DNA of 64,000 nucleotides from Chloroflexota bacterium (GTDB lineage: Bacteria > Chloroflexota > Dehalococcoidia > JACQUD01). The notes under the pieces were generated by a model. It saw nothing but the letters and a program-made list of their open reading frames with translations, did not search any database and was not told where the DNA came from. This document shows, one piece after another, positions 661 to 62,060 of this stretch (within the stretch, counting starts at the first letter, position 1; each line of letters starts with the position of its first letter). The stretch spans positions 12,590 to 76,589 of the forward strand of contig JACQUD010000074.1 of the NCBI GenBank assembly GCA_016210485.1, in the 5' to 3' direction. The translations under genes and the position numbers were made by a program.

Positions 661-735
<75 letters not shown>

Positions 736-49231: not shown

Positions 49232-50341
49232 CTACGAAGAGAAGGCGCCCTTGATCTTGCCAAGAAGGCCCTTGGACTCCTTGGGCAGCGACGCCGGGCC
49301 CAGGGAACGACCCAGCTCCCGGAAGAGCCGCCTCTGCTCAACAGTCAGAGAATCAGGGGTCACCACCATTACCCTGACCACCTGGTCGCCGCGCCCGGCG
49401 CCCTCGCTATAGGGCACCCCCTTGCCTCTGAGGATGAAGGCCTCGCCATTTTGGGTGCCGGCGGGGATTCTCATGCTGACCGAGCCTTCCAAAGTGGGGA
49501 CCTCTATCTCATCCCCCAGGGCGGCCTGGGCGAAGTTAATAGGAATCTCGCAAAGGATATCGTGGTCCTGGCGCTGGAATAAGGGGTGAGGCTTAACATC
49601 CAAGGCAATGAGAAGGTTCCCCGCAGGCCCGCCGCGGAGCCCTGCATCCCCCTCGTTTCTGAGCAACATCTGGTTCCCCTGGTTAACACCAGGGGGTATT
49701 TTTACGGCTATCTTGCGGTGTCGCCTCTCCCTCCCTGCTCCCTGGCACGCAGAGCAAGGTGAGACGATGACTTTGCCCTCCCCCTGGCAGCGGTCGCATA
49801 TGGCCACATGAACGAACTGGCCAAAGATACTCTGCTGAGAGCGTCGCACCTCGCCACTGCCACGACAGGCGGGGCACTGGGCCGGCTGGCTACCTGGGGC
49901 ACTGCCCAAGCCGCGACACTCAGAGCAAACCTCCGTTCGAATGATACTCAGAGGCTTTTGACAGCCGAAGACGGCCTCTTCGAAGGTCAGGGCTAGCCGG
50001 TAGCGAAGGTCGGCGCCCCGCTGGGGCGCTCGACGAGTTGACGTGGCCCCTCCGAAGAAGGCATCGAATATATCACCGAAGCCGCCGAAGTCGAAACCCG
50101 AGAAGGGGCGGTCCCCCAGGGCCCCGGCGTGGCCGAAGCGGTCATAGGCCGCTCTCTTCTCCTGGTCGGAGAGAACCTGATAGGCCTCGTTTATCTCCTT
50201 GAAGCGGGCTTCGGCTTCATCCTCATCGTTGCGGTCGGGGTGGTATTTGAAGGCCAGCTTACGGAAGGCCTTCTTGATCTCCTCCTCAGAGGCACTGCGA
50301 GGCACGCCCAAGACCTCATAATAGTCTCTCTTGGTCGCCAT
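49232..50341 (-). CDS. dnaJ: Molecular chaperone DnaJ (type I)
   Basis: [13 protein letters not shown]...[19 protein letters not shown], a G/F region and four CxxCxGxG zinc-finger repeats. ATG at 50341 is preferred over the ORF opening at 50374. No dnaK or grpE is adjacent. Confidence 0.93.
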
Positions 50342-50490
50342 AGATACAATCGCCCTATCCTTTCCAACTCCCATTATAGAGCCTGCCCCGAAGGAAGTGA
50401 AGCGGCATAGGATGGCGAAGCCAAGGATGAGCCTCTCTTGAGTGAGAGAGCGGCAAAATATACTTTTTAAACAGTCTCCGCATCTTAAAC

Positions 50491-54347: not shown

Positions 54348-54887
54348 ATGACATTAGCAGAAGAAATGCGCAGCCTGGCCCAGGACATCCTGGGCTCTTT
54401 GGAGGGCAGGGCCACAGCCATTGCGGAAATCAAGCGGGAGACAAGACACCTCCGGTCCCAGACCAGGGCTGGGCTGGGGACACTTCATGAGGCACAGGAA
54501 ACCCTGCGCCGGGAGCTCGGAGAGAGCCTTGCGCAGAGCCGCTCCCACCTTCAGTCCGAGGTAGGCGCTACGCTCCAGGCCTTTGGGCGAGAGCAAAAAA
54601 CAGTGCGCCAGGACATAGCCGGCGCTCGCAACGAGTGGAGAAAGCTGAGCGTGGCCGCGCACTCCAGTAAGGGAAGGCCCGCACACCAGGGAACCGCATC
54701 CTCCCACGGGATGGTTGACCTGGGCGACCGGGCCTTCCAATACCTGACCGACCGCCCCAAGGGCACCAAAATGGCGGAGCTAGAAAAGGCGCTGGGCATT
54801 CCCCGCATCCAGATGGCCAGGGTCTTGAAAAGCCTGGTAGAGGCCAACAAGGTTAAGAAACAGGACCTCCTCTACTTCGCCGCATAA
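54348..54887 (+). CDS. Hypothetical gvp-cluster protein: N-terminal ~100-aa helical/coiled-coil region plus C-terminal winged-helix-like domain
   Basis: RBS ggagga is 6 nt upstream. The N-terminus is rich in R/E/Q/L heptads. The C-terminus FQYLTDRPKGTKMAELEKALGIPRIQMARVLKSLVEANKVKK looks like a wHTH. It occupies the position directly after gvpA. Confidence 0.6.
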   Translation: MTLAEEMRSLAQDILGSLEGRATAIAEIKRETRHLRSQTRAGLGTLHEAQETLRRELGESLAQSRSHLQSEVGATLQAFGREQKTVRQDIAGARNEWRKLSVAAHSSKGRPAHQGTASSHGMVDLGDRAFQYLTDRPKGTKMAELEKALGIPRIQMARVLKSLVEANKVKKQDLLYFAA

Positions 54888-55853: not shown

Positions 55854-56198
55854 ATGATAGGCGCAAGCAGAGTGAAGACTTTGGGCGATATAAGGACTGC
55901 CCTAGGCATCCGCCTTCGCTCCAAGCCAGCCCAGCAGGAAGACTCCTATCGAGACGTCTATCTGCTAGGCATAGAGAAGCTAAGGATGAGGGGAGAGATG
56001 AGGCGGCTGGAGAGGCAGCGGGGAAGAGTGGAGAAACGCCTGGCTGAGATCCGCTCCAAGCTGGAGAGGCTGGCCCAGATGGCGCAGGAGGATGCCGAGC
56101 ATGAGGCTCCATCCCACCCTACGCCCCCAGGAAAACCTTCGGCGGATGCCGGGCAACCCGACCGGAGGCCATGGAAAAGGATGCCTATCCAATACTAA
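55854..56198 (+). CDS. Hypothetical gvp-cluster coiled-coil protein (114 aa)
   Basis: RBS gagagga is 5 nt before ATG 55854. LGIEKLRMRGEMRRLERQRGRVEKRLAEIRSKLERLAQMAQE is followed by a P-rich tail. It holds the positional slot between gvpN and gvpF. Confidence 0.55.
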   Translation: MIGASRVKTLGDIRTALGIRLRSKPAQQEDSYRDVYLLGIEKLRMRGEMRRLERQRGRVEKRLAEIRSKLERLAQMAQEDAEHEAPSHPTPPGKPSADAGQPDRRPWKRMPIQY

Positions 56199-56427: not shown

Positions 56428-57489
56428 ATGGAAGGCAATTATATCTACGGCATCGTCGCCAGCCATAATGGGGCCGGCCTGACCCACCTGGATATCCCTG
56501 GCATCGATGGGCAGGGGCTGACCTTCCTCTGCGCCCGCCGGGACATCGCTTGCCTGGCCAGCCACTACTCCGGCCCCGAGTTCAGCTCCCTGCCTCGGGA
56601 ACAGGTGCTCCACTGCCTGCTCTCCCACCAGGCGGTGATGGAGCACGCCATGAATGAAGGCCCCGTGCTCCCGGCCAAGTTTGGGACGGTGCTCTCCGCA
56701 TCCAGCGAGCTATATCAACTCCTGGAACAAGGCCGCCCGCTGTTCCAGGAAGCCCTGAACCGCCTCCAGTACGTGGTTGAGATGGAGGTGGTCGCTACCT
56801 GGGACCTCCAGCAGGTGCTCCGGGAGATAGGGTCCCAGAGCGACATCGTCGCCGCCAGGGAAACCATAGCCCGGGAGCCCGGGGCAGGCCTGGAGGCGCG
56901 CCTCCGCCTGGGGCAGATGGTCAAGGCCTCTTTGGACCGGCGCCGGACCCAGTTCTGCGAAGTCATAGTAGGCTGCCTCCGGCCCCTGGCCGTCGACCTC
57001 CAGCCCAACGCCCTGGCCTCCGACGAGATGGTGATGAACGTCGCCTTCCTTATAGAGAGGGTGCGGCAGGCTGAGTTGGAGAGCTGTCTGAGACAACTGG
57101 ATAGCCATTTCCAGGACCAGCTTAAATTCCGGGGCATAGGCCCTCTCCCCCCTTACAGCTTCGCTACCGTGGAGGTCAGCAAGCCCGACGGAGAGAAATT
57201 GACAGCGGCCCGGCATCTCCTGGGCCTGGTAGAGACATGCTCCGAGGCAGAGGTGCGAAGAGCCTACCGACATCTGGCCGCCCAGTCTCACCCGGATCGC
57301 CAGACCAGCAGCGAGCCGCCCCAGGTAGAACTCACCCAGCTGCGCCGGGCGGCAGACCTGCTCATCGCACAGTGCCGAGGACGGATGGGAGATGACAGTT
57401 TCCTCATCGCTATAAAGCGCCGCCGGCTGGATGAAGTGCCCTTCCTCCGTTTCGCTGAGACTGAGATGGCTGGAGCCCCCCATGGCTGA
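56428..57489 (+). CDS. GvpF/GvpL family protein with a C-terminal J-domain extension (HPD motif)
   Basis: Residues 1-250 form a GvpF/L core (NYIYGIV...LP.KFGTV...GPLPPYSF). Residues ~258-316, AARHLLGLVETCSEAEVRRAYRHLAAQSHPDRQ...LTQLRRAADLL, match J-domain helices II and III, with HPD encoded at 57289-57297. Confidence 0.85.
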   Translation: MEGNYIYGIVASHNGAGLTHLDIPGIDGQGLTFLCARRDIACLASHYSGPEFSSLPREQVLHCLLSHQAVMEHAMNEGPVLPAKFGTVLSASSELYQLLEQGRPLFQEALNRLQYVVEMEVVATWDLQQVLREIGSQSDIVAARETIAREPGAGLEARLRLGQMVKASLDRRRTQFCEVIVGCLRPLAVDLQPNALASDEMVMNVAFLIERVRQAELESCLRQLDSHFQDQLKFRGIGPLPPYSFATVEVSKPDGEKLTAARHLLGLVETCSEAEVRRAYRHLAAQSHPDRQTSSEPPQVELTQLRRAADLLIAQCRGRMGDDSFLIAIKRRRLDEVPFLRFAETEMAGAPHG

Positions 57490-58258
57490 AGTTGGCAAAT
57501 ACCTCTACTGCATTATCCCCTGCTCGGTGGAACGGACTTTCGCCATCGCGCCCATAGATGACGGAGTCGGCGGGGTGAGCACAATCTGCCATGAAGGCCT
57601 GGCCGCCGTGGTCAGCGACGCCACCTCCAGGCACTATGAGAGCACCCGCAGCAACCTGATGGCCCACGAGAAAGTCCTGGAGGCAGTGATGACGGAGTTC
57701 ACCCTCCTCCCCGTGCGGTTCGGCACCGTGGCCGATGCTGCTACCCCTGCTCAGGACATCCACAAACTCCTGAGCCACAAGTCCGAGGAGTTCCGCGAGC
57801 TTCTAAGGGGGATGGAGGGAACGACAGAGCTGGGCCTCAAAGCCTTCTGGCGGAATGAGAAAGCCATCTTCCCCGAGCTCCTGGCCGAAAACCCGGAGAT
57901 AAAGCGCCTGATAGACTCCCTATCTGCCAGGTCCCGTCAGGCCAGCGCTTCGAGTCCGGAGCGCCTCCACCTGGGGCAGATGGTCAAGGAAGCCCTGGAG
58001 CTCAAGAGGGCCAGAGAGGCAGCGCAGATCCTGTCACCCCTGCGCCCCCTGGCCCAGCGACTTCGAGAGAACTTCCCGCTGGTGGACAGGATGATAGCCA
58101 ACGCTGCCTTTCTGGTGGAAAGGGAGCGTGAGCCTGAGTTCGACATAGCGGTCAGCACCCTGGATAGACAGCTAGGCCAGCGGGTAGCCTTCAAATATGT
58201 GGGGCCGGTGCCACCCTATAATTTCGTGAATATCGTTGTGAACTGGGAAGAGCTTTAG
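57482..58258 (+). CDS. gvpF: Gas vesicle protein GvpF/GvpL family
   Basis: ATG at 57482 overlaps the upstream stop. GKYLYCIIP......I....G.....I...GLAAVVSD, LLPVRFGTV and C-terminal YVGPVPPYNF. Confidence 0.9.
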   Translation: MAEVGKYLYCIIPCSVERTFAIAPIDDGVGGVSTICHEGLAAVVSDATSRHYESTRSNLMAHEKVLEAVMTEFTLLPVRFGTVADAATPAQDIHKLLSHKSEEFRELLRGMEGTTELGLKAFWRNEKAIFPELLAENPEIKRLIDSLSARSRQASASSPERLHLGQMVKEALELKRAREAAQILSPLRPLAQRLRENFPLVDRMIANAAFLVEREREPEFDIAVSTLDRQLGQRVAFKYVGPVPPYNFVNIVVNWEEL

Positions 58259-58266
58259 GTGAAGAG

Positions 58267-58524
58267 ATGAGCCTGCTTCTGAGTTTGCTGACCCTGCCCG
58301 CCCTGGGGCCTATAAGGGGGACCGGCTGGCTGGCCAAGAGAATCGCCGAGGTTGCCTGGGCCGAGATGAAGGACGAAGGGTGGGCCAGGGGCGAGCTCCA
58401 GGAACTTCAGATGCGCCTCGACCTGAGGGAGATAACCGAAGGCGAGTATGCGGAAAAGGAGGCGGCTCTCCTGGAGCAGATAAGGGCCGCTCGGGAAGCC
58501 GAGGCCTTGCCCAGCCAGCGTTGA
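58267..58524 (+). CDS. gvpG: Gas vesicle protein GvpG
   Basis: The 85-aa sequence LPALGPIRGTGWLAKRIAEVAWAEM.DE......L.ELQMRLDLREITEGEYAEKEAALLEQI matches the GvpG family pattern. Confidence 0.88.
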   Translation: MSLLLSLLTLPALGPIRGTGWLAKRIAEVAWAEMKDEGWARGELQELQMRLDLREITEGEYAEKEAALLEQIRAAREAEALPSQR

Positions 58525-58554: not shown

Positions 58555-58809
58555 ATGGTGGTCCAAGAGCTAGCCGAGCGAGCTAAGAGTCAACTGAAAG
58601 ACATCACAGGTCTAATGCCCTCGGCCGTCACCGAGGCCTTCAAGGACGACCTGGGATGGCACATAACCCTGGAGGCACTGGAGATGGCCAGGGTCCCCTC
58701 TACCGCCGACGTCCTGGGCATCTACGAGGCCATCCTGGACGAAGAGGGCAAGCTGCTCAGATTCCAGCGAAAGCGAGCTCGCCTCCGCTGCCAGACGACA
58801 GAAGAATAA
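58555..58809 (+). CDS. gvpO: Gas vesicle protein GvpO
   Basis: A...L.DITG......T.......GW.ITLEALEMARVPSTADVLGIYEAILDEEGKLLRFQRKRA matches the actinomycete-type GvpO pattern (GW.V.VEV.E..RIP...D.LA.YEV.LD..G.L..Y.R). Confidence 0.82.
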   Translation: MVVQELAERAKSQLKDITGLMPSAVTEAFKDDLGWHITLEALEMARVPSTADVLGIYEAILDEEGKLLRFQRKRARLRCQTTEE

Positions 58810-59128: not shown

Positions 59129-59449
59129 GTGCCTCTCCGAATCGACGAGGATGGCCTGAAACAGGGGGTGCTGGGGCTAGTTCTGGCCCTGGTGGAGATC
59201 ATCAGGGATGCCCTTAAGCACCAGGCCCTGAGACGGGTGGAGGGCGGGAGCCTGAGCCCACAGGAGATGGAAAGACTGGGGCGGGCGCTGGAGGACCTGG
59301 ACGCCGCCATCGAGGAGATCCAGCAGGAACTGGGGCTCAACGAGGCTGTAAGGTCACTTCGGGAGGGCCTGGACGAGCTGGTGGACGATGCCCTGGAGAG
59401 GATAATAAACCCGGAGAGATGGCAGGGTGCAGCTGAGGCGAGGAATTGA
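59129..59449 (+). CDS. gvpK: Gas vesicle protein GvpK
   Basis: GTG start. GLKQGVLGLVLALVEIIRDALKHQALRRVEGGSLSPQEMERLGRAL..LD..IEEIQQELGL. Confidence 0.88.
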   Translation: MPLRIDEDGLKQGVLGLVLALVEIIRDALKHQALRRVEGGSLSPQEMERLGRALEDLDAAIEEIQQELGLNEAVRSLREGLDELVDDALERIINPERWQGAAEARN

Positions 59450-59450
59450 T

Positions 59451-60224
59451 ATGAGAGAGGGGCGCTACCTGTATTGTATCGTCCCCGAGAGGGAGCAGAT
59501 GAGCCTGGAGAGCATCGGACTGGGAGGTAAAAAGACCTACACCATCCCCTATGAAGACCTGGCGGCCGTGGTCCACCGCTGCCCGGCTCAACCCTACGCC
59601 TCCCAGGAACATGAGATGGCGATAGCCTGGGTTACGGCCCATCAAGAGGTAGTGGAGGCTGCCTGGCGGAGATGGCATCCTATCCTGCCCCTGAGCTTCA
59701 ATAACATCATTGTAGGGGATACAGAGAAAGAAGCGGAGCAAAAGGTGAGGGGATGGCTGGAACATGAATACGAAAGGCTCAAGAGGAAGATGGAGAAGAT
59801 GACGGGTAAGGACGAGTTCGGTGTCCAGGTCTTCTGGCATCCCAGAGCCATTGCCCAGAGCTTGAGCCAGAGTAGCCCGGAGCTCCGCCAGATGGCTGAG
59901 GAGATTAAGGCCGCACCCAGGGGCCGAGCCTACCTGCTCCGGCAGCGGCTGGGAACATTGTTGAAGGAGCAAATGGAGGCCTGGGCCAGCCAGTGCTGCC
60001 AAGACATATATAGCAATATCCGCCAGCACATCGACGATATCTTTTGGGAAAAAACAAAGAAGAGCGAGGAGGATATGAAGATGCTCCTGAGCCTCTCCTG
60101 CCTGGTCTCCCGAGGGAAGGAAAAGGGATTGGGGGAGGAGTTGGAGACCATAAGCCGGAGGGAGGGCTTTTCAGTGCGCTTCACAGGGCCCTGGCCCCCC
60201 TATAGCTTTGTGGGAAATCCCTGA
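59451..60224 (+). CDS. Gas vesicle protein GvpL/GvpF family (third paralog)
   Basis: ATG at 59451 lies 1 nt after the gvpK stop. GRYLYCIVP....................Y.DLAAVVH ... ILPLSF, C-terminal FTGPWPPYSF. Confidence 0.88.
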   Translation: MREGRYLYCIVPEREQMSLESIGLGGKKTYTIPYEDLAAVVHRCPAQPYASQEHEMAIAWVTAHQEVVEAAWRRWHPILPLSFNNIIVGDTEKEAEQKVRGWLEHEYERLKRKMEKMTGKDEFGVQVFWHPRAIAQSLSQSSPELRQMAEEIKAAPRGRAYLLRQRLGTLLKEQMEAWASQCCQDIYSNIRQHIDDIFWEKTKKSEEDMKMLLSLSCLVSRGKEKGLGEELETISRREGFSVRFTGPWPPYSFVGNP

Positions 60225-60235
60225 GAGGAGACTTT

Positions 60236-60523
60236 ATGGAGCCAAGCCGCCATCCCCAGGCCACGCTGCAGGACCTGCTGAACCGAGCCTTGGACAGGGG
60301 GTTAGTGATAAACGCTGACCTCGTCATCTACCTGGCCGGGGTCCCCCTCCTGGGGGTCAACCTGAGAGCCGCCATAGCGGGCATGGAGACCATGCTCCAG
60401 TATGGCCTTATGAAGGAGTGGGACGAACAGCTCCGTGCCAGCGCGCAAAACAAGCTGGAGGCCGCCTCACTGCTTCCGGCCGCCCTCCCCAGCCGAGAAT
60501 GCCTGGAGGCGAAAGATGTCTAG
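60236..60523 (+). CDS. GvpA/J/S-family small gas vesicle protein (second minor paralog)
   Basis: ATLQDLLNRALDRGLVINADLVIYLAGVPLLGVNLRAAIAGMETMLQYGL is a GvpA-family core with a divergent C-terminal tail. Confidence 0.85.
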   Translation: MEPSRHPQATLQDLLNRALDRGLVINADLVIYLAGVPLLGVNLRAAIAGMETMLQYGLMKEWDEQLRASAQNKLEAASLLPAALPSRECLEAKDV

Positions 60524-62024
60524 AGCCGTCGGGATAGACCTGGGGACCACCTACACAGTGCTGGCCGTCATCGAGGGTGACCAGCCCAGGGTCATCCCCA
60601 ATGCCGAAGGGGAGCTGCTGACCCCTTCGGTAGTAACCTTCACCCAGGACGAGCAACCTTTGGTGGGACTGCCGGCCAAGCTTCAGGCCGCGGCTCACCA
60701 CCAATGGGCCGTAGCCTCCATAAAAAGGCATATGGGCTCCGGCCACAGGGTACAGGTGGGGGAGAGGGAGCACACCCCTGAGGAGATATCTGGCTTCATC
60801 CTGAGAAAGGTTAAGACCGATGCCGAAGCCTACCTGGGGGAAAGCATAGATAAAGCTGTTATCACCGTGCCCGCCTATTTCAACGACCGACAGCGCCAGG
60901 CTACTCGGCAGGCCGGCTTCCTGGCTGGCCTGCAGGTGCTCCGCATCATCAATGAGCCCACCGCCGCCGCCCTGGCCTATGGCCTGGACCGAGAGGATAT
61001 TCACACCGTTCTGGTCTGGGACCTGGGCGGCGGCACCTTCGATGTATCTATCCTGGAGATAGAGGCAGGAATCCTGGAGGTGAGGGCTGTCAGCGGGGAC
61101 CCTTGGCTGGGGGGAGACGACTACGACCAAAGACTGGCGGACTACCTGGCGGGGCTTTACCCGGAGCCCTGGGGGAAGGCCTTTCGACAGGATAGAAGCC
61201 TCCGGCAAAGGCTTCAGGAGGCCGCGGAGAAGGCTAAAATCGAGCTTTCCACTCAGCCCTGGGCTCAGGTCCGCTTGCCCACAGCCCTACCAGAGCGAGA
61301 GGAGACCGCCTCTTTCAAAACCACCGTTATCCGGGAGCAGTTTCAGGCGCTGACCCGAGACCTGCTGGAGAGGATGATACCCCCTACGGAACAGGCCCTG
61401 GCCGATGCCGAGCTGAAACCTGGCGATATCCACAGGGTGCTCCTGGTGGGAGGAGCCACCAGGATGCCCGCCGTCCAGGAGCTGGCCCGGGAGCTCCTGG
61501 GACAGGAGCCTTACCGGGGCCTCAACCCCGACGAGGCGGTGGCCCTGGGAGCCGCCCTCCAGGCCGGGATGCTCCTGGGTCAAATGAAGAAGACCATCCT
61601 CCTGGACGTGCTCCCTCTCTCCCTGGGGGTGGAAACCCAGGGAGGCCTCTTCGCCAGAGTCCTCCGCCGGAACATCCACCTGCCCGCGGCGGAGTCCCGC
61701 ATCTTCACCACCGCTGCCGACAACCAGACCTCCATGGACATCCATGTCCTTCAAGGGGAACAGGAGCGGGCACAGGACAACTTATCCCTGGGTCAATTCC
61801 AACTCCAGGACATCCCACCCCTATCTAAGGGCGTGCCCAGGGTCGAAGTAACCTTCGAGGCAGATGTGAACGGCATCCTGCATGTCTCCGCCCGAGACCT
61901 GCTCTCGGAGAGCGAGGCTAAGGCGGAGATGATTGCCCGCCCTGATCACTACCCAGAGAAACCCCCTCTATCTCTAGCTACTTCCCAGGGCCGCGCCTTC
62001 GAAACTCCCAGGATTTCAGGATGA
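60516..62024 (+). CDS. Hsp70/DnaK-family ATPase lacking the C-terminal helical lid (502 aa)
   Basis: ATG at 60516 overlaps the upstream gvp gene by 8 nt. VGIDLGTTYTVLAV, ITVPAYFND.QRQAT..AG.LAGL.VLRIINEPTAAALAYG, DLGGGTFDVSIL, VLLVGGATRMPAVQE, and linker plus beta-SBD ILLDVLPLSLGVET.GG.F. It ends ~40 aa after the beta-sandwich, with no alpha-lid and no EEVD. Confidence 0.9.
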   Translation: MSRAVGIDLGTTYTVLAVIEGDQPRVIPNAEGELLTPSVVTFTQDEQPLVGLPAKLQAAAHHQWAVASIKRHMGSGHRVQVGEREHTPEEISGFILRKVKTDAEAYLGESIDKAVITVPAYFNDRQRQATRQAGFLAGLQVLRIINEPTAAALAYGLDREDIHTVLVWDLGGGTFDVSILEIEAGILEVRAVSGDPWLGGDDYDQRLADYLAGLYPEPWGKAFRQDRSLRQRLQEAAEKAKIELSTQPWAQVRLPTALPEREETASFKTTVIREQFQALTRDLLERMIPPTEQALADAELKPGDIHRVLLVGGATRMPAVQELARELLGQEPYRGLNPDEAVALGAALQAGMLLGQMKKTILLDVLPLSLGVETQGGLFARVLRRNIHLPAAESRIFTTAADNQTSMDIHVLQGEQERAQDNLSLGQFQLQDIPPLSKGVPRVEVTFEADVNGILHVSARDLLSESEAKAEMIARPDHYPEKPPLSLATSQGRAFETPRISG

Positions 62025-62030
62025 GCCGAT

Positions 62031-62060
62031 TTGACAGCAGGAGGCAACCATCTCTAGAAT
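62031..62060 (+). promoter_or_regulatory. Promoter candidate for the GreA-like gene
   Basis: TTGACA at 62031-62036, an 18-nt spacer, then TAGAAT at 62055-62060. This suggests the gene is transcribed separately from the gvp operon. Confidence 0.5.

Follow-up and report, generated by a model that had tools for sequence, protein, structure and literature searches.

Some Hsp70 chaperones are dedicated to a single client and are encoded with a J-protein of their own. HscA and HscB (Hsc66 and Hsc20) are encoded together in the isc operon, which has no GrpE gene, and the part of HscB outside its J-domain binds one client, IscU. HscC and DjlC of Escherichia coli are likewise a specialised Hsp70 and a private J-protein encoded nearby. 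In auxilin and GAK, which act with Hsc70 in clathrin uncoating, a J-domain is fused to a binder of a self-assembling protein shell and brings Hsp70 there. Here we describe an Hsp70 gene (hsp70) that is the last of 13 plus-strand genes in a gas-vesicle (gvp) cluster of a Chloroflexota metagenome-assembled genome (MAG), together with a gene of the same cluster whose product joins a GvpF/L domain to a C-terminal J-domain (GvpF/L-J). Identical proteins are found in NCBI as MBI4298088.1 (Hsp70) and MBI4298080.1 (GvpF/L-J), on a contig of 90,270 bp; the 64 kb of it that we analyzed are called the window. Based on domain content, catalytic and allosteric residues, operon position, synteny and phylogeny, we propose, with a probability of about 60%, that the two proteins are an operon-encoded, client-dedicated Hsp70/J-protein pair for gas-vesicle biogenesis.

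GvpF and GvpL have so far only been suspected of being the chaperones that keep the extremely hydrophobic GvpA-family subunits in solution and deliver them to the growing vesicle. In other systems, GvpF is reported to bind GvpA and GvpL to bind GvpJ/GvpM, and both were proposed to act as chaperones for aggregation-prone proteins (PMC9501494, PMC11445434); GvpA aggregation is proteotoxic in E. coli (PMC12848028). Hsp20 and ArsA-like genes have been reported in gvp clusters in a study that mentions no Hsp70 or J-domain (PMC2963123). A paper on a Hakuba actinobacterium describes hsp20 beside gvp and mentions neither the Hsp70 of the same cluster nor a J-domain (PMC7325909). Our searches of the open-access literature turned up no account of Hsp70s or J-domains in gvp clusters, in agreement with an earlier sequence-only reading of this stretch that had called the combination undescribed. 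What appears to be new, judging from the sequences, is the targeting domain (GvpF/L) and the client system of a client-dedicated Hsp70/J pair.

The Hsp70 and its proposed J-domain partner

The window Hsp70 matches the Pfam HSP70 family (PF00012) with 581 bits. Its match to the NCBIfam DnaK models is limited to model positions 1-491 of 625 and misses the DnaK equivalog cut-offs of both NF001413 (626.9 vs 648 bits) and TIGR02350 (614.2 vs 822.55 bits). The best solved structure is the DnaK of Geobacillus kaustophilus (2V7Y), of the Gram-positive type, to which query residues 1-468 align. Like this housekeeping DnaK, the window protein has an ATPase domain, a hydrophobic interdomain linker (TILLDVLPL, with D393 conserved) and the beta-sandwich of the substrate-binding domain (SBD-beta); the helical lid (helices A-E) of the superfamily is missing. 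Residues K70, P143, R151, R167, E171, D194, T199, D201 and D393 (E. coli numbering) are intact, and the catalytic ones among them (K70, E171, D194, T199 and D201) are also kept in 37 of 37 clade members. An AlphaFold2 model (pLDDT 82, pTM 0.81) contains the ATPase domain, the linker and SBD-beta, with eight beta-strands over residues 361-471, no helix after strand beta8 and disorder over residues 473-502. The protein shares 48%, 40% and 37% identity with E. coli DnaK, HscA and HscC. In the alignment with DnaK, homology ends at about residue 503, the end of strand beta8, as it does after this strand with all other Hsp70s, and is followed by a Pro-rich C-terminal tail of 27-31 aa without homology to any lid. 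Profiles, alignment and model therefore bear out the sequence-only reading of an Hsp70 with nucleotide-binding domain, linker and beta-sandwich and no lid, except that about 30 aa, not about 40, follow the beta-sandwich.

Three known classes were considered and rejected. The protein lacks the lid and C-terminal tail of housekeeping DnaK, scores below the DnaK cut-offs, forms part of a separate phylogenetic group, and lies in a gvp operon instead of a grpE-dnaK-dnaJ context, with no grpE in the window. It is closer to DnaK than to HscA, which keeps its lid; the HscA model gives 501.1 bits against a cut-off of 708.55, and no isc genes lie nearby. Identity to HscC is lower still than to DnaK, HscC belongs to a different lineage, and DjlC has no GvpF/L domain. 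Because the protein belongs to none of these classes, we treat the pair as a client-dedicated Hsp70/J type of its own. By analogy, HscA/HscB is its closest functional counterpart, although GvpF/L replaces the HscB C-domain as the part that binds the client, and the proposed client is a shell protein and not IscU. Auxilin, in contrast, is eukaryotic, acts in disassembly and has no sequence relationship to the fusion protein beyond the J-domain.

The J-domain of GvpF/L-J scores above the Pfam gathering threshold for PF00226 (27.8 bits), and its HPD tripeptide, between helices II and III, lines up with those of two DnaJ proteins, one from E. coli and the other encoded in the window. In an AlphaFold2 model (pLDDT 83.8) a GvpF fold is followed by a helical J-domain with helices at residues 255-264, 273-286 and 298-319. 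Foldseek matched this model to the GvpF structures 6L5D and 4QSG and to many J-domains, including the DnaK-bound 5NRO_B. The N-terminal 250 residues have the fold of these GvpF structures, whereas the characterised GvpF proteins have no J-domain. The fusion is not peculiar to the window: 117 of the 120 closest homologs match both PF06386 and PF00226, and the HPD is kept in 113 of 119. A conserved hydrophobic-basic segment, [FL]L[IV]NI[RK]R..[DE]EV..RF (residues ~322-345), follows the J-domain. It is predicted to form a beta-strand and is kept even in lineages without the HPD. With basic residues on both sides of a hydrophobic core, it looks like a DnaK-binding motif.

The cluster contains gvpA together with gvpN and genes for GvpF/L, G, J, K and O on one strand (Table 1), with intergenic gaps of at most about 230 nt and several overlaps. 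The ATG of hsp70 (60516-60518) precedes the TAG of the last GvpA/J-family gene (60521-60523), an 8-nt overlap, and a GGAGG lies 6 nt upstream of it (60505-60509). The second GvpF/L gene starts in the same way, its ATG overlapping the end of the GvpF/L-J gene by 8 nt (57482-57489). Membership of hsp70 in the gvp operon, which the sequence-only reading had deduced from the overlap, is confirmed by the overlap itself and by the synteny kept in relatives. Because a promoter match follows the hsp70 stop codon and the next gene, for a GreA-like protein, is absent from related gvp loci, the operon most likely ends with hsp70. The promoter match is likely the start of the next, unrelated transcription unit; a terminator scan 3' of hsp70 gave nothing convincing. 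The housekeeping dnaJ has no dnaK or grpE beside it, and tblastn of the window found no second Hsp70 and no GrpE, so profile match and search agree with what had been read from the sequence.

Distribution and ancestry of the pair

We surveyed gene contexts with 10-kb flanks. In a search of 5.8 billion protein clusters, the best 120 homologs share 57-69% identity with the window Hsp70. Four of them (from Coprothermobacterota, Dehalococcoidales, Ca. Hakubella and Actinomycetota) were inspected individually and all lie at the 3' end of gvp clusters, as do two further homologs. Over all surveys, every close relative with known context has this position: 12 genome or MAG loci, 53 metagenome loci and four library representatives. 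The place of hsp70 after the last GvpA/J-family gene, mostly within 50 nt of it and sometimes overlapping it, is shared by loci of Chloroflexota, Coprothermobacterota, Actinomycetota and Ca. Hakubella. Hsp70 is thus syntenic with gvp genes in every readable relative, where a lack of such synteny had been named as grounds for giving up the idea.

The presence of the two genes was compared in both directions. A scan of 185,579 species genomes seeded on GvpF/L-J returned 19 loci. In 10 out of 10 distinct J-bearing loci with sufficient contig, an Hsp70 gene directly follows the last GvpA/J-family gene; the nine Verrucomicrobiota gvp loci, which have no J-domain, have no Hsp70. A reciprocal metagenome scan seeded on Hsp70 yielded 80 loci (52-68% identity), 53 of them linked to gvp and 12 in dnaJ/grpE neighbourhoods without gvp genes; the rest are too short. 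Of the 35 loci whose upstream sequence is 9 kb or longer, 27 are gvp-linked and seven of the other eight are dnaJ/grpE-linked. Among these 27, GvpF/L-J with the HPD occurs in 17, a J-like domain without the HPD in one and another J-protein in two. Most clusters therefore carry both partners in this cross-tabulation of Hsp70 linkage and J-domain fusions.

All Hsp70 trees were built by neighbour-joining. In the tree, all gvp-linked Hsp70s group together, and the 12 dnaJ/grpE-linked DnaKs fall outside them in 49 out of 50 bootstrap replicates. The dnaJ/grpE-linked DnaKs from the Hsp70-seeded search form two clades apart from the gvp-linked group. A search of a 50%-identity library, used for outgroups only, found no high-identity representative; the library representatives inside or beside the gvp group are all gvp-linked (4/4), and the next group out is not. 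The window Hsp70 belongs to this lineage by its position after the last GvpA/J-family gene as well as by its placement in the tree. In a smaller, earlier tree, the two best-sampled subclades had 100% support each, but their union had only 13% bootstrap support. We therefore rejected strict monophyly as a conclusion from that first tree, and a single origin of the gvp-linked Hsp70s is likely, judging from these trees, but not proven. Of the residues that we screened as specific to the clade, only T221V passed the filter. The arch change M404Q, although widespread in the clade, was rejected as a marker: variation at this position is found in other Hsp70s as well.

Some loci of the survey (denoted by L numbers) are of interest in their own right. 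In L010, a Chloroflexota MAG, the HPD is lost and the linked Hsp70 has R167G and N170S; R167 contacts the HPD in DnaK, so both sides of the canonical J-Hsp70 contact are changed together. L011, from a MAG labelled Deltaproteobacteria, has an orphan GvpF/L-J-like gene in which GSD replaces the HPD. This gene is probably a relic, because its 8.3-kb contig has no other gvp gene. In the next group out of the Hsp70 tree, L122 (GCA_016935915.1) encodes a 583-aa Hsp70, then a J-domain protein with HEAT repeats, CheW, CheA and PilZ, downstream of sigma-28-like and FapA genes. This could be a further case of a short Hsp70 that has its own J-protein, here with chemotaxis and flagellar genes as neighbours.

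Other genes of the cluster and its relatives

Two conserved proteins without family assignment flank gvpN (179 aa and 114 aa) and recur in related clusters. Homologs of the 179-aa protein lie upstream of gvpN in L001, L006, L008, L010 and L014. The GreA-like protein has an unexplained N-terminal extension of 116 aa. Rfam and tRNA scans of the window gave nothing relevant, and a tRNA-Met (CAT) gene is the only RNA gene found.

Related clusters contain additional proteostasis genes. These encode a free-standing zinc-finger protein of the DnaJ type (CXXCXGXG; PF00684, 47.3 bits), an Hsp20-like protein between gvpJ and gvpK, a second Hsp20, and a Cdc48-like double AAA+ ATPase just after hsp70; some clusters also have an ArsA-like ATPase. 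Hsp20 and ArsA-like genes, the accessories already reported for gvp clusters, are thus found in relatives of the window cluster and not in the window. Because the window has none of the zinc-finger, Hsp20, Cdc48-like and ArsA-like genes, its cluster is a stripped-down version. The GvpA/J-family protein encoded before hsp70 also differs in size, with 246-370 aa in several relatives against 95 aa in the window.

Table 1. Features of the gvp cluster, its surroundings in the window and selected loci of relatives. Coordinates are those of the window unless a locus is named.
Feature	Coordinates	Strand	Evidence or remark
tRNA-Met (CAT)	661-735	-	
Housekeeping dnaJ	49232-50374	-	438.8 bits vs 338-bit cut-off
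gvpA, major shell protein, 68 aa	53972-54178	+	PF00741 53.8 bits; 84% identity to L005 GvpA
Conserved 179-aa protein; coiled-coil N-terminus, weak winged-helix-like C-terminus	54348-54887	+	only sub-threshold HTH matches
gvpN-like AAA+ ATPase, 304 aa	54929-55843	+	PF07728 AAA_5 61.7 bits; 70-75% identity to gvpN of related clusters
Conserved 114-aa coiled-coil protein	55854-56198	+	35% identity to L005 114-aa protein; equivalent position in relatives
GvpF/L with C-terminal J-domain, 353 aa	56428-57489	+	PF06386 177.5 bits, PF00226 29.5 bits; HPD at residues 288-290
Conserved segment after the J-domain	57390-57470	+	part of the GvpF/L-J gene
Second GvpF/L paralog	57482-58258	+	PF06386 212.8 bits
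gvpG	58267-58524	+	PF05120 62.7 bits
gvpO	58555-58809	+	PF05800 62.7 bits
GvpA/J-family protein, 99 aa	58826-59125	+	PF00741 61.6 bits
gvpK	59129-59449	+	PF05121 67.6 bits
Third GvpF/L paralog	59451-60224	+	PF06386 224.9 bits; open reading frame open from 59427, likely start ATG 59451; homology starts at GRYLYCIV segment
Last GvpA/J-family gene, 95 aa	60236-60523	+	PF00741 51.6 bits; precedes hsp70 in all relatives
gvp-linked Hsp70, 502 aa	60516-62024	+	ATPase domain, linker, SBD-beta; no helical lid; disordered 30-aa tail
Sigma-70-like promoter match	62031-62060	+	TTGACA-18-TAGAAT, 11/12; 3' of hsp70 stop
GreA-like gene, 273 aa	62100-62921		not in any related gvp locus
Proteostasis genes in relatives	L001 2101-2436, 7119-7697, 12071-12580, 12610-14763; L030 7021-9171; L025 4133-6091		
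Extended GvpA/J-family genes in relatives	L001 8884-9996; L027 8769-9878; L025 9240-9980		long C-terminal extension, faint GRAM/Vps36-like matches
Locus with HPD loss and changed Hsp70	L010 6112-7431, 13237-15015		
Orphan GvpF/L-J-like gene	L011 4435-5433		
Hsp70 locus of next group out	L122 8001-10689		

Proposed function of the pair and loss of the lid

A J-domain on GvpF/L, beside an Hsp70 with all J-responsive residues, fits the logic of client-specific J-proteins. In the proposed mechanism, the GvpF/L domain of the fusion would bind hydrophobic GvpA/J-family subunits and so select the client, and the C-terminal J-domain would dock on the Hsp70 of the cluster and trigger ATP hydrolysis. 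The subunit would then be captured in the beta-sandwich pocket and stay soluble until it is inserted into the growing shell. With hsp70 translationally coupled to the last GvpA/J-family gene, chaperone and client would be made in step, and this coupling suggests that this protein, or the whole family, is the client. The physical contact between J-domain and Hsp70, the identity of the client and the effect on vesicle formation are what we infer.

Several observations weigh against this proposal. Some lineages have lost the HPD and kept the Hsp70 (L008, L009, L010, L011, L013, L061 and L063), and in 7 of the 27 gvp-linked loci the flank contains no J-domain, although several of these clusters extend beyond it. 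The window gvp cluster encodes no nucleotide-exchange factor, the union of the two best-sampled subclades had the low bootstrap value given above for the smaller neighbour-joining data set, and the window copy is among the most divergent (8 changes in 173 conserved positions, against a median of 3). Divergent and without a lid, it could be functionally impaired. Because several HPD-less lineages keep their Hsp70, canonical J stimulation, as far as sequence can tell, cannot be universal in the family. The two-component chaperone module of the sequence-only reading thus stands as a conserved pair in the gvp operon, but the coupling of its two parts is not absolute.

Among the alternatives, an auxilin-like role in release and recycling comes first. 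The J-domain would recruit Hsp70 to the GvpF/L assembly complex and not to shell subunits, and Hsp70 would pull GvpF/L and its partners off GvpA at the growing rim, or take accessory complexes apart once assembly is complete. This would suit a J-domain fused to a protein that is reported to be a shell-subunit binder and a hub of accessory-protein complexes (PMC9501494, PMC11445434), and related clusters encode a Cdc48-like unfoldase. The segment after the J-domain, with its predicted strand and its likeness to a DnaK-binding motif, could be a tethered Hsp70 site, but may be merely structural because HPD-less lineages keep it. Sequence does not separate this model from client hand-off; however, the gene to which hsp70 is coupled is of the GvpA/J family, not a GvpF/L gene, and we consider release and recycling unlikely, though worth keeping in mind.

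The missing lid raises the question of whether the window copy still works. Of the 120 closest homologs, 101 have 580-589 aa and lid helices A-E, and gvp-linked Hsp70s mostly have 562-644 aa with a complete helical lid and no acidic C-terminal tail. On the tree the lid was lost at least three separate times, in the window protein (502 aa), in the L003 type (504 aa, found in four assemblies) and in the L030/L061 type (522 aa, with a stop codon that overlaps the next gene). We rejected lid loss as a trait of the clade, since full-length orthologs are in the majority and truncated ones occur at separate places in the tree, and the "lid-less paralog" of the sequence-only reading does not describe the family.

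It is conceivable, but improbable, that the family is functional and that in this MAG the gene was crippled by the deletion and is a decaying remnant. In favour of such decay are the lid kept by most orthologs, the divergence of the window protein, which it shares with the other lid-less forms, and the absence from its cluster of the Hsp20-like, DnaJ-type zinc-finger and Cdc48-like genes of relatives. But the reading frame is open for 502 codons, the protein retains 165 of the 173 positions with 95% or higher conservation in the clade, along with all catalytic and allosteric residues, the J-domain partner retains its HPD, and both translational coupling and Shine-Dalgarno sequence are retained. 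To judge by these features the gene does not look dead, and the independent loss of the lid in two other lineages suggests that the lid is dispensable here. Engineered lid-less DnaK is the guide to what its loss should do: client exchange should become faster, and the window Hsp70 would bind its client faster and trap it less tightly. Lid loss could also accommodate a partly folded client.

A general stress chaperone that is merely co-located, serving the whole proteome under vesicle-inducing conditions and linked to gvp by co-regulation only, is very improbable. Hsp20 genes near gvp have been read as a heat-shock link (PMC7325909) and the substrate-pocket residues of the window Hsp70 are ordinary and DnaK-like, but in most clusters the J-domain is part of a gas-vesicle-specific protein, the genes keep the same order from phylum to phylum, the tree sets the lineage apart from dnaJ/grpE-linked DnaKs, and the window has a separate full-length DnaJ.

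We give next to no weight to an artefact, a frameshift or a chimeric MAG join, even though the homology has a sharp end and no relative has the downstream GreA-like gene beside gvp genes: the truncation is a genuine deletion, because tblastn with the lid segments of two orthologs found no match in any frame of the whole window and only 75 nt separate the stop codon from the next gene (which rules out a frameshift), and because an independent Logan contig (SRR12113390; 99.85% identical, 2 mismatches in 1325 bases) has the same C-terminus, stop codon and GreA-like gene and the GC profile shows no break (which rules out a chimeric assembly). The sequence-only reading had named full-length orthologs that expose a local frameshift as grounds against it; such orthologs exist, but the frameshift does not.

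For gas-vesicle biology, a natural GvpF/L-J fusion beside a private Hsp70 is independent genomic evidence for GvpF/L as a client-binding adaptor. Gas vesicles have a practical use as acoustic reporter genes, for which this compact 13-gene cluster would supply a matched chaperone pair as an obvious candidate part. Hsp70 biology gains a new J-protein architecture and natural lid-less Hsp70s. Dozens of gas-vesicle clusters, belonging to several phyla, have the pairing, which offers a testable idea on how sticky shell proteins are handled. Only tentatively, and with rather less confidence than in the pair itself, we suggest all of the following together: that GvpF/L may be the substrate-targeting class of an unrecognised J-protein family, that in a large group of uncultured anaerobes an operon-encoded Hsp70 cycle, and not only GvpN, may drive the delivery or insertion of GvpA-family subunits into the shell, that the repeated natural loss of the lid may mean that this client does not need the lid to close, and that the lid-less forms may be the first such Hsp70s in nature to have a defined task.

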